Shown: one piece after another, positions 26,120 to 36,776 of the stretch
Position numbering within the stretch: position 1 is the stretch's first letter
Layout: every line of letters begins with the position of its first letter
Origin: Alphaproteobacteria bacterium
GTDB lineage: Bacteria > Myxococcota_A > UBA796 > CAJQPC01
NCBI GenBank assembly: GCA_020632795.1
Contig: JACKEV010000010.1
Span: 31,127-95,126 of the forward strand
Direction of reading: 5' to 3'
Length of the DNA stretch: 64,000 nt
The notes under the pieces: model-generated
Databases searched by the model: none
Told to the model about the DNA's origin: nothing
What the model saw: only the letters and a program-made list of their open reading frames with translations
Translations under genes and position numbers: made by a program

Positions 26120-28246
26120 ATGCGTCGGATCGCTCTGGTGGTGGCTCTGGCCACGTTGGGCTGTAAGGACGACACCCAGCCGGTGACGGACGACACAGGG
26201 CCGGTGGTCGAGGTCGACGAGGACGGCGACGGCTCCCCTGCGGACGTCGACTGCGACGACGCCAACCCCGACGTGTACCCCGGCCAGACCGAGACCCCCT
26301 ACGACGGCGTCGACAACGACTGCGACGAGGGCACCCCCGACGACGACCTCGACGGGGACGGCTACCCCCAGGCCCAGGACTGCGACGACCAGGACGCCAA
26401 CCTCAACCCCGGCGAGATCGAGGTCTGCGACGGCGTCGACAACAACTGCAACGGGCAGGTCGACGACGCCGCCGGCGGCATCTTCTACGCCGACGCCGAC
26501 GGGGACGGCTTCGGCGACCCGGACGTCACCGCGCAGTCCTGCGAGGGCAACGAGGGCTACGTCGCGGACAACTCCGACTGCGACGACGGAAACGCGGCGG
26601 TCAACCTGCTCGCCGACGAGTACTGCGACGGCATCGACAACGACTGCGACGGCGCCACCGACGAGCCCCAGGCCGTGGACGCCGCCACCTGGTACGCCGA
26701 CGCCGACAGCGACGGCCACGGCACCGTCGACACCACCACCGAGTCCTGCGATCAGCCCGAGGGCTTCGTGGCCGGCGGCGAGGACTGCGACGACAGCAAC
26801 CCCCAGGTCAGCCCCAACGCCGTCGAGTTCTGCAACGGCTACGACGACAACTGCGACGGCGAGACCGACGAGGACACCGCTTTCGACGTCGAGACCTTCT
26901 ACGCCGACTTCGACGGCGACGGCTACGGCAACGCCGCCTACGCCACCGACGCCTGCGACGCCCCCGCCGGCTACGTCGACGACGACACCGACTGCGACGA
27001 CACCGAGGCCGGCGCCTACCCCGGGGCGACCGAGACCTGCGACGAGGTCGACAACGACTGCGACCGCGACGTCGACGAGGGCGTGACCTTCACCTACGCC
27101 CCCGACTACGACGGCGACGGCTACGGGGATGACTCCGGCCGCTATGAGGTCGAGGCCTGCAGCCAGCCCGCCGGCTTCGTCTCCGACGCCTCGGACTGCG
27201 ACGACTCCGACAGCAGCGCCAACCCCGGCGAGACCGAGGCCTGCGACGAGGTCGACAACGACTGCGACAGCAGCGTCGACGAGGGGGTGACCTCCACCTG
27301 GTACCTCGACGCCGACGGCGACGGCTACGGGCGGGACAGCTCCACGGTGGACGCCTGCGCGGCGCCCACCTCGGCCTACGCGGCCCTCGGCGGCGACTGC
27401 GACGACAACGACACCGCCTTCAACCCCGGCGAGACCCCGGGCTGCGACGGCAACGACTACGACTGCGACGGCAGCGTCGACAACGACGCCGACGCCGACG
27501 GCTACAGCGACATCGCCTGCGGCGGCACCGACTGCGACGACAGCGACCCCAACATCCTCCCCGAGGCCGCGGGGGGCTGCGCCCTGGGCACCGACTGCCT
27601 GGACATCTACAACAGCGGCTACACCACCGACGACGAGTACACCATCGACCCCGACGGCTACGGCACCGGGGTCGACCCGGTGGACGTCTGGTGCGAGATG
27701 ACCTTCAACGGCGGCGGCTGGACCTCGGTGTTCAACTACATGGACCCGGGCGGCTCCTCCACGACGGACGCCGCCAACTTCCACGCCGCGCTGATCAACA
27801 ACGCCGACATGAACAGCCCGGTGCTGCCCACGGACACCTCGGCCTCGATCTACACCTCGAACCTGGACCTGAGCCAGTACACGGAGGTGGTCTACGGCTG
27901 GGCCGCCTCCAGCACCGACGACGTCAGCCGCTACGGCACCTACACCGACGCCAGCGGGCTCAGCGGCGAGTGCTACCTCGACGGCTACTGCGGGGCGAAC
28001 GTCGCGATCGCCTCGATGGACATCCTGCCCACGGGCAACAACCGCACCATCTACACGGGCAATCAGCCCACCTATCCTCACGTCGGTATGGGCTTCAGCG
28101 GGCAGATCATCCTGTGGGGCTACGACCGCAACAACTCCAGCTATGGGAACTGGGCGAACTGGTATGACCTGAACTCCTGCTGCAACGCCGGGAACACAAG
28201 CGCCATCCAGACCTCTGGCTGGCGCTACGTGATCTACATCCGGTAG
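26120..28246 (+). CDS. Lipoprotein with about 12 MopE-like Cys/Asp-rich repeats (putative metal-binding motif) and a C-terminal fibrinogen-related domain
   Basis: Lipobox LATLGC. Repeats of 'DCDDxDxxxxPGxxExCDGxDNDCDGxxDE…WYxDxDGDGYG'. C-terminus 'YTIDPDGYGTGVDPVDVWCEMTFNGGGWTSVF' matches the fibrinogen C-domain signature (…VYCDM.tdGGGWTV…). Confidence 0.85.
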   Translation: MRRIALVVALATLGCKDDTQPVTDDTGPVVEVDEDGDGSPADVDCDDANPDVYPGQTETPYDGVDNDCDEGTPDDDLDGDGYPQAQDCDDQDANLNPGEIEVCDGVDNNCNGQVDDAAGGIFYADADGDGFGDPDVTAQSCEGNEGYVADNSDCDDGNAAVNLLADEYCDGIDNDCDGATDEPQAVDAATWYADADSDGHGTVDTTTESCDQPEGFVAGGEDCDDSNPQVSPNAVEFCNGYDDNCDGETDEDTAFDVETFYADFDGDGYGNAAYATDACDAPAGYVDDDTDCDDTEAGAYPGATETCDEVDNDCDRDVDEGVTFTYAPDYDGDGYGDDSGRYEVEACSQPAGFVSDASDCDDSDSSANPGETEACDEVDNDCDSSVDEGVTSTWYLDADGDGYGRDSSTVDACAAPTSAYAALGGDCDDNDTAFNPGETPGCDGNDYDCDGSVDNDADADGYSDIACGGTDCDDSDPNILPEAAGGCALGTDCLDIYNSGYTTDDEYTIDPDGYGTGVDPVDVWCEMTFNGGGWTSVFNYMDPGGSSTTDAANFHAALINNADMNSPVLPTDTSASIYTSNLDLSQYTEVVYGWAASSTDDVSRYGTYTDASGLSGECYLDGYCGANVAIASMDILPTGNNRTIYTGNQPTYPHVGMGFSGQIILWGYDRNNSSYGNWANWYDLNSCCNAGNTSAIQTSGWRYVIYIR

Positions 28247-36776: not shown

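Follow-up and report, generated by a model that had tools for sequence, protein, structure and literature searches.

Two genes for repeat-rich lipoproteins, here called A and B, face each other across a major vault protein (MVP) homolog in the 64,000-nucleotide stretch of contig JACKEV010000010.1 analyzed in this study (hereafter the window), and the question raised by this locus is whether the pair plays any part in its structure. An earlier note on this DNA had offered two readings: an inverted duplication that could mediate inversion of the MVP segment, or co-localised surface binding proteins. The present results favor the second. With a probability of about 75%, A and B are independent envelope lipoproteins with lectin-like heads that diverged long ago within a large family, mostly labelled Myxococcota, and neither plays a structural or recombinational part at the locus. 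Coordinates of all features are collected in Table 1.

Two lipoproteins with a common architecture

The arrangement originally described for both genes, a lipoprotein signal followed by MopE-type repeats and a fibrinogen-like domain, was borne out by open reading frames (ORFs), Pfam, the NCBIfam model NF040941 (GGGWT_bact) and BLASTP, where the E-value of 9e-83 for A against B places the common architecture far beyond chance. Both genes have a GC content at third codon positions (GC3) of 0.97, typical of true genes in this window, in which overall GC content is 70-77% throughout. Judged from motifs in the translations, each product begins with the signal peptide and lipobox Cys of a bacterial lipoprotein; the lipobox reads ...LATLG-C in A, and in B, whose longest ORF starts at 36848, the start at 36776 (MKRLTFALLLAGC) yields a canonical ...LLAG-C. 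The stalks match Pfam Cu-binding_MopE in 7 stretches in A (E 2e-59) and 8 in B (E 5e-73), and in both proteins they are built of ~69-aa units (period 204-207 nt in Tandem Repeats Finder, TRF), in each of which a CDDxD...C..DNDCDG motif and a DxDxDGYG motif occur once. The full units number 7-8, rather than the "about 12" repeats first noted. Asp makes up 24-27% of the stalks, and the Asp-rich stalk of A has a strongly positive AT skew.

Two further MopE-motif genes lie in tandem at 46018-47142 (+) and 47139-49079 (+), the second combining the motif with FG-GAP repeats; with four MopE genes in 64 kb, the family is much expanded in this genome. The repeats of B at 35178-36320 (-) share 79% DNA identity among themselves versus 70% for those of A, and B carries three near-identical 69-aa units (...WYADxDSDTYGD...CYQPSGYVAD...). 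This higher likeness points to a probable recent expansion or homogenisation of repeats within B. An AT skew as strongly positive (0.25) as that of the stalk of A was also seen at 16001-18000, coinciding with a 1278-aa ORF at 16505-20341 (+), a region in which a MopE repeat query gave no tblastn hit.

Outside the repeats, similarity between A and B is concentrated in the N-terminal part of the heads. Both heads exceed the 30-bit cut-off of NF040941 (A, 36.8 bits; B, 56.3 bits) and the 22-bit cut-off of Fibrinogen_C (PF00147; A, 26.0 bits; B, 30.9 bits), the latter over profile positions 2-51 and 4-61 of 221 only, and neither matches Fibrinogen_C across the ~221-position domain that includes the P subdomain with its Ca2+/ligand site. 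Profile matches to the PDB are likewise confined to ~55-68 residues, and B has in addition a weak, sub-threshold Pfam match to COLFI. The two heads have a (Y/W)C(D/E)M..(D/N)GGGWT motif in common and are ~39-40% identical over their first 50-70 residues; a profile-profile comparison of the two head families gave 98.8% probability over 57 columns only. Past the first ~60 residues the heads can barely be aligned, and a forced global alignment yields 20% identity. The similarity that had been reported for the C-terminal ends thus comes down to a final hydrophobic strand with Arg as its last residue. By comparison, the ortholog of A in the sister metagenome-assembled genome (MAG) L001 is 74% identical to A in the head and 69% over its full length, and it follows that the split between A and B long predates the split of these genomes.

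Each head represents its own subfamily. A word-index search returned 21 homologs of the A-type head with 45-75% identity, nearly all with the WRYVIYIR end, and these heads sit on MopE repeats, on other Cys-rich repeats, or by themselves after a signal peptide. When the B-type head was used in an exhaustive phmmer search, 2743 representatives were found, nearly all matching residues ~10-70 only, often repeatedly within giant proteins; the ~10 that match across all 233 residues are carried on MopE, Ig, YadA-stalk, Laminin_G_3 or Stig1-like scaffolds. Four giant proteins (P0145, with 4522 aa, P0146, P0147 and P0151) match the N-terminal GGGWT region of the B head (~50 residues) at 9-15 separate places, and either whole heads or this subdomain alone are repeated many times per polypeptide. 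The occurrence of the same head types on Ig, YadA-stalk, Laminin_G and Cys-rich scaffolds fits the reading of A and B as surface binding proteins, as do the lipobox, the extracellular type of repeat stalk and the head fold described below.

Alternative explanations for the inverted pair

If A and B were the arms of an inverted duplication, homologous recombination between them could invert the GT-Uma2-MVP-MBL segment as a switch, and the inverted orientation of the genes ~6 kb apart, the presence of 393-nt stretches with 74% complementarity and one exact match of 32 nt would all be in keeping with such a switch. However, the comparison of A with the reverse complement of B by blastn, a check suggested together with the inversion idea, produced >30 overlapping high-scoring segment pairs of 65-79% identity (best 71% over 1205 nt), and among the matches listed all but one fell inside the repeat arrays; the 32-nt word is the longest that the two genes share. 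A search for inverted repeats returned 64 inverted pairs, of which the 25 longest all lay within the repeat arrays with 72-82% complementarity. The A-B DNA identity of 71% represents family background, because A against itself gives 70% and A or B against the unrelated tandem MopE genes gives 69-71%; across >30 alternative registers the A-B values (66-74%) do not rise above either. This is the low, repeat-driven identity that the earlier note had itself named as refuting its inversion reading. In addition, neither near-identical inverted repeats nor a site-specific recombinase with its sites was found, no ORF scanned between 21 and 40 kb had a Pfam match to a recombinase or invertase (several of these ORFs had no Pfam match of any kind), the heads are only ~20% identical, and recombination within coding repeats would yield chimeric A/B genes.

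Gene order in relatives also speaks against inversion. The context of the MVP locus was drawn from the homologs P0002, P0003, P0004, P0008 and P0011, and genes were compared one by one with tblastn. L001 (GCA_020632765; MVP 75% identical) has the order MVP(+), Peptidase_C14(+), HEAT(-), GT(-), A-ortholog(-), TPR(-), DnaJ-like(-), MurJ(-), with Polyketide_cyc2, a radical-SAM gene and GST upstream of MVP, and neither B nor MBL. L003 (MVP 70% identical) has MVP(+), GT(-), TPR(-), SDR(-), DnaJ-like(-) and no MopE gene at all. The window, when read in the MVP(+) orientation, shows SDR(+), B(+), MBL(-), MVP(+), secreted hypothetical(-), Uma2(+), GT(-), A(-), TPR(-), DnaJ-like(-). The DnaJ-like/TPR/(A)/GT block therefore has one and the same orientation relative to MVP in all three genomes, the opposite arrangement was not observed among them, and B and MBL were not found near MVP in either L001 or L003. 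An apparent inversion relative to L003, in which an adh_short gene and a ~540-aa gene would lie on the other side of MVP, was rejected by tblastn. The 542-aa gene of L003 is a homolog of the DnaJ-like gene of the window (23049-24356), which shares strand and side with the TPR/A/GT block, and it occupies the same side and strand; the SDRs of the window and L003 are only 32% identical and so are not orthologs. A recent inverted duplication that flips the MVP locus is contradicted by the repeat-driven low DNA identity, the diverged heads and the fixed orientation, and a recombinational switch deserves almost no credence.

Another potential explanation is a functional module that unites A, B, GT and MBL with the bacterial MVP homolog, the first four serving, for instance, as surface components connected to a vault-like particle. 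Physical proximity would agree with this, as would the A-GT pair kept beside MVP in one sister MAG and the GT/TPR/DnaJ-like genes kept there in two, but the linkage is gone in L004-L006 (MVP 57-59% identical), where no MopE or GGGWT gene was found nearby, and in the partial sister contig L002, which begins inside MVP, the genes downstream are unrelated. B and MBL are unique to the locus of this genome, and, in contrast to the exported lipoproteins A and B, MVP lacks any signal peptide context. Among GTDB species representatives, 26 loci with A-type heads were identified, about two-thirds of them labelled Myxococcota, Deltaproteobacteria, Polyangia, Nannocystaceae or Myxococcales and one a Spirochaetales MAG; none of the 26 has GT, MVP, MBL or TPR within 6 kb. 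A module of this kind is very unlikely, and nothing ties the co-location of A and B to the MVP gene. It is also possible that A and B mainly bind or scavenge metal (Cu or Ca) through their MopE-type repeats, with the head needed only for folding or oligomerisation, as in the case of the procollagen C-propeptide. Methylococcus MopE is described (PMC3423442) as being secreted and as binding copper through a His/kynurenine site. In A and B, by comparison, the motif forms a long Asp-rich stalk without an evident copper site. The portability of the head across adhesin-type scaffolds and the established lectin roles of ficolins, intelectins and FIBCD1 speak for the head as a ligand binder. A role mainly in metal binding is improbable.

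Under the preferred reading of A and B as independent envelope lipoproteins, the N-terminal Cys would anchor each protein in the envelope through lipid, and the 7-8 MopE-type repeats would form a rigid, disulfide-bonded and probably Ca2+-loaded stalk presenting the C-terminal globular head. We infer that the head is exposed at the surface, where it would act as a lectin or adhesin, most likely for a glycan or another surface ligand; since A and B carry different head subfamilies, their ligands probably differ. Their convergent positions around MVP would reflect local expansion of the family together with variable gene content, A lying within the conserved DnaJ-like/TPR/A/GT1 block and B, with MBL, in the non-syntenic region upstream of MVP. 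Several of the A-type loci have further MopE/GGGWT genes close by, either in tandem (L009, L012 and L025) or on the opposite strand (L013, L020 and L031), which indicates that clustering of this family is common and indifferent to orientation.

Genes between and around A and B

The five genes named in the earlier note between A and B were all recovered, the secreted protein being encoded by the ORF given in Table 1. A and the GT1 gene are probably co-transcribed operon partners, with the gap between them reduced to 3 nt in L001; no functional link emerges, and GT occurs without A in L003. The GT1 assignment is based on Pfam and NCBIfam matches that all lie below equivalog cut-offs. Gene content between MVP and GT varies: Uma2 is missing from both L001 and L003, and the same position holds Peptidase_C14 and a HEAT protein in L001 and is empty in L003. 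This variable content, together with a GC3 of 0.83 compared to 0.95-0.97 for all neighbors, suggests that the Uma2 gene is a recent insertion. The secreted hypothetical protein has no Pfam match and no homolog in L001-L003, and an alternative ORF in the same gap (30082-30570 (+), 162 aa) was rejected as a gene with a GC3 of 0.59. The MBL hydrolase gene and B are convergent, with a 4-nt overlap of their stops.

The MVP product is 100% identical to P0001 (NCBI protein, locus tag H6739_20440). Bacterial MVP homologs are widespread, with 1375 proteins at E <= 1e-5 among 8000 candidates scored, and those with an organism label are mostly assigned to Myxococcota, Myxococcales, Deltaproteobacteria or Bradymonadia. 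Only the GT1, TPR and DnaJ-like genes recur beside MVP, and only in the closest relatives; the remaining neighborhood differs between genomes, including the upstream flank with B and MBL. The portions of the literature searched yielded no discussion of gene neighborhoods of bacterial MVP homologs. At NCBI, the label "Alphaproteobacteria bacterium" is given to the source MAG and to the two MAGs nearest to it (P0001, P0002 and P0004). Most labelled homologs of MVP and the A head, however, are assigned to Myxococcota, Deltaproteobacteria or Polyangia, and the Alphaproteobacteria label looks doubtful.

Table 1. Features of the MVP locus, with positions in the window
Feature	Coordinates	Strand	Evidence
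Gene A, lipoprotein with MopE repeats and A-type FReD-like head, 708 aa	26120-28246	+	ORF/translation, Pfam, NCBIfam, GC3, L001 ortholog
Signal peptide with lipobox of A (MRRIALVVALATLGC)	26120-26164	+	Translation
MopE-type Cys/Asp repeat stalk of A	26243-27580	+	tblastn, motif count, TRF
A-type head domain, ~230 aa, C-terminal WRYVIYIR	27551-28243	+	
GT1-family glycosyltransferase (EryCIII/MGT/Rgt-like), 9 nt after A	28255-29622	+	Pfam, NCBIfam
Uma2-family putative endonuclease, start probably MGKTALK	29629-30201	-	Pfam Uma2 E 7e-23
Secreted hypothetical protein, 184 aa, signal peptide MTFALLVSLSAASAA	30275-30829	+	GC3 0.95, translation
MVP homolog; NCBI-annotated start 33166 gives 776 aa	30836-33337	-	Pfam MVP_shoulder and Vault_3
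MBL-fold hydrolase (Lactamase_B_2)	33352-34485	+	Pfam E 8e-53
Gene B, lipoprotein with MopE repeats and B-type intelectin-like head, 764 aa	34482-36776	-	Translation, Pfam, NCBIfam, GC3
MopE repeat stalk of B; TRF period 207 nt with ~5.4 copies, repeats 79% identical in DNA	35178-36671	-	
B-type head domain, 233 aa, C-terminal RVSVWVR	34485-35183	-	
TPR protein gene upstream of A, start approximate	25297-25917	+	Pfam TPR; 69-73% identity to TPR genes of L001 and L003

Head fold and comparison with known systems

Similarity in 3D fold to solved fibrinogen-related domains (FReDs) places the heads in the FReD/intelectin fold superfamily, within which the B type is structurally closest to animal intelectins. 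The intelectin (X-type lectin) family binds glycans with exocyclic 1,2-diols, and the Ca2+ site for the ligand reportedly comprises N260, E262 and E274 with H263 and an aromatic box of W288 and Y297 (Wesener et al. 2015). The residue identities in the human intelectin-1 (hITLN1) sequence used for comparison were checked against 4WMQ. When the B family was aligned with hITLN1 by MAFFT, at an identity of ~15% that makes this weak negative evidence, N260, E262 and H263 fell in a ~35-residue segment missing from the bacterial heads. Position 274 holds a conserved D and 288 an E, an aromatic residue is lacking at 297, and the intelectin ligand site was thus not found in the B family. Weak as it is, this evidence keeps B from being filed as an intelectin proper. 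The bacterial B family has invariant acidic motifs of its own, CDxDGxxLE and GDIGSE. We tentatively propose, at rather less than even odds, that the B-type head is a true prokaryotic relative of the intelectin/X-type lectin fold, and the A-type head a more distant one, with a Ca2+/ligand site formed by these two motifs, and that they serve as modular glycan-recognition heads on many stalks in Myxococcota-like bacteria. If so, new specificities for microbial glycans might be sought among such heads, which would also be relevant to how the intelectin branch of the FReD superfamily arose.

These findings remove the tempting but wrong reading of the locus as an invertible MVP cassette, and the largely variable neighborhood of MVP seen here matters to searches for bacterial vault partners. 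MopE-repeat lipoproteins (Pfam PF11617) and bacterial GGGWT fibrinogen-like domains (NF040941) are already catalogued, and A and B are new members of both. Uncurated as yet are the two full-length ~230-aa head subfamilies of the bacterial GGGWT/fibrinogen-like group now defined, as well as the intelectin-like fold of the B type; a literature search on bacterial FReD/intelectin homologs found no description of either, and one on PF11617 returned nothing specific to proteins like A and B. The intelectin likeness offers a modest starting point for finding new lectins and for tracing how FReDs and X-type lectins evolved.

Several known systems can be set beside the two proteins. Compared to canonical FReDs (PF00147: fibrinogen beta/gamma, ficolins, angiopoietins, FIBCD1 and MFAP4), the A head has TM-scores of no more than 0.35-0.49, the sequences of A and B match only profile positions 2-61 of 221, and there is no recognisable conservation of the P subdomain, which binds the ligand. 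Intelectins (human intelectin-1, 4WMQ; Xenopus XEEL, 4WMO) are 13-15% identical to the A and B heads, which are ~50 residues shorter, and are secreted as disulfide-linked trimers; the bacterial proteins, by contrast, are lipoproteins with a repeat stalk. The GGGWT_bact model accepts both proteins above its curated cut-off; however, it covers 46 residues of the N-terminal subdomain, and the remaining ~180 residues of each head, which differ between A and B, have no curated model. The closest likeness in the stalk is to the MopE-motif (PF11617) repeat lipoproteins of Myxococcota, in which the same tandem DCDDxD...PGAxExCDGxDNDCDG motifs occur as in A and B and of which many genes are present in the related MAG loci.
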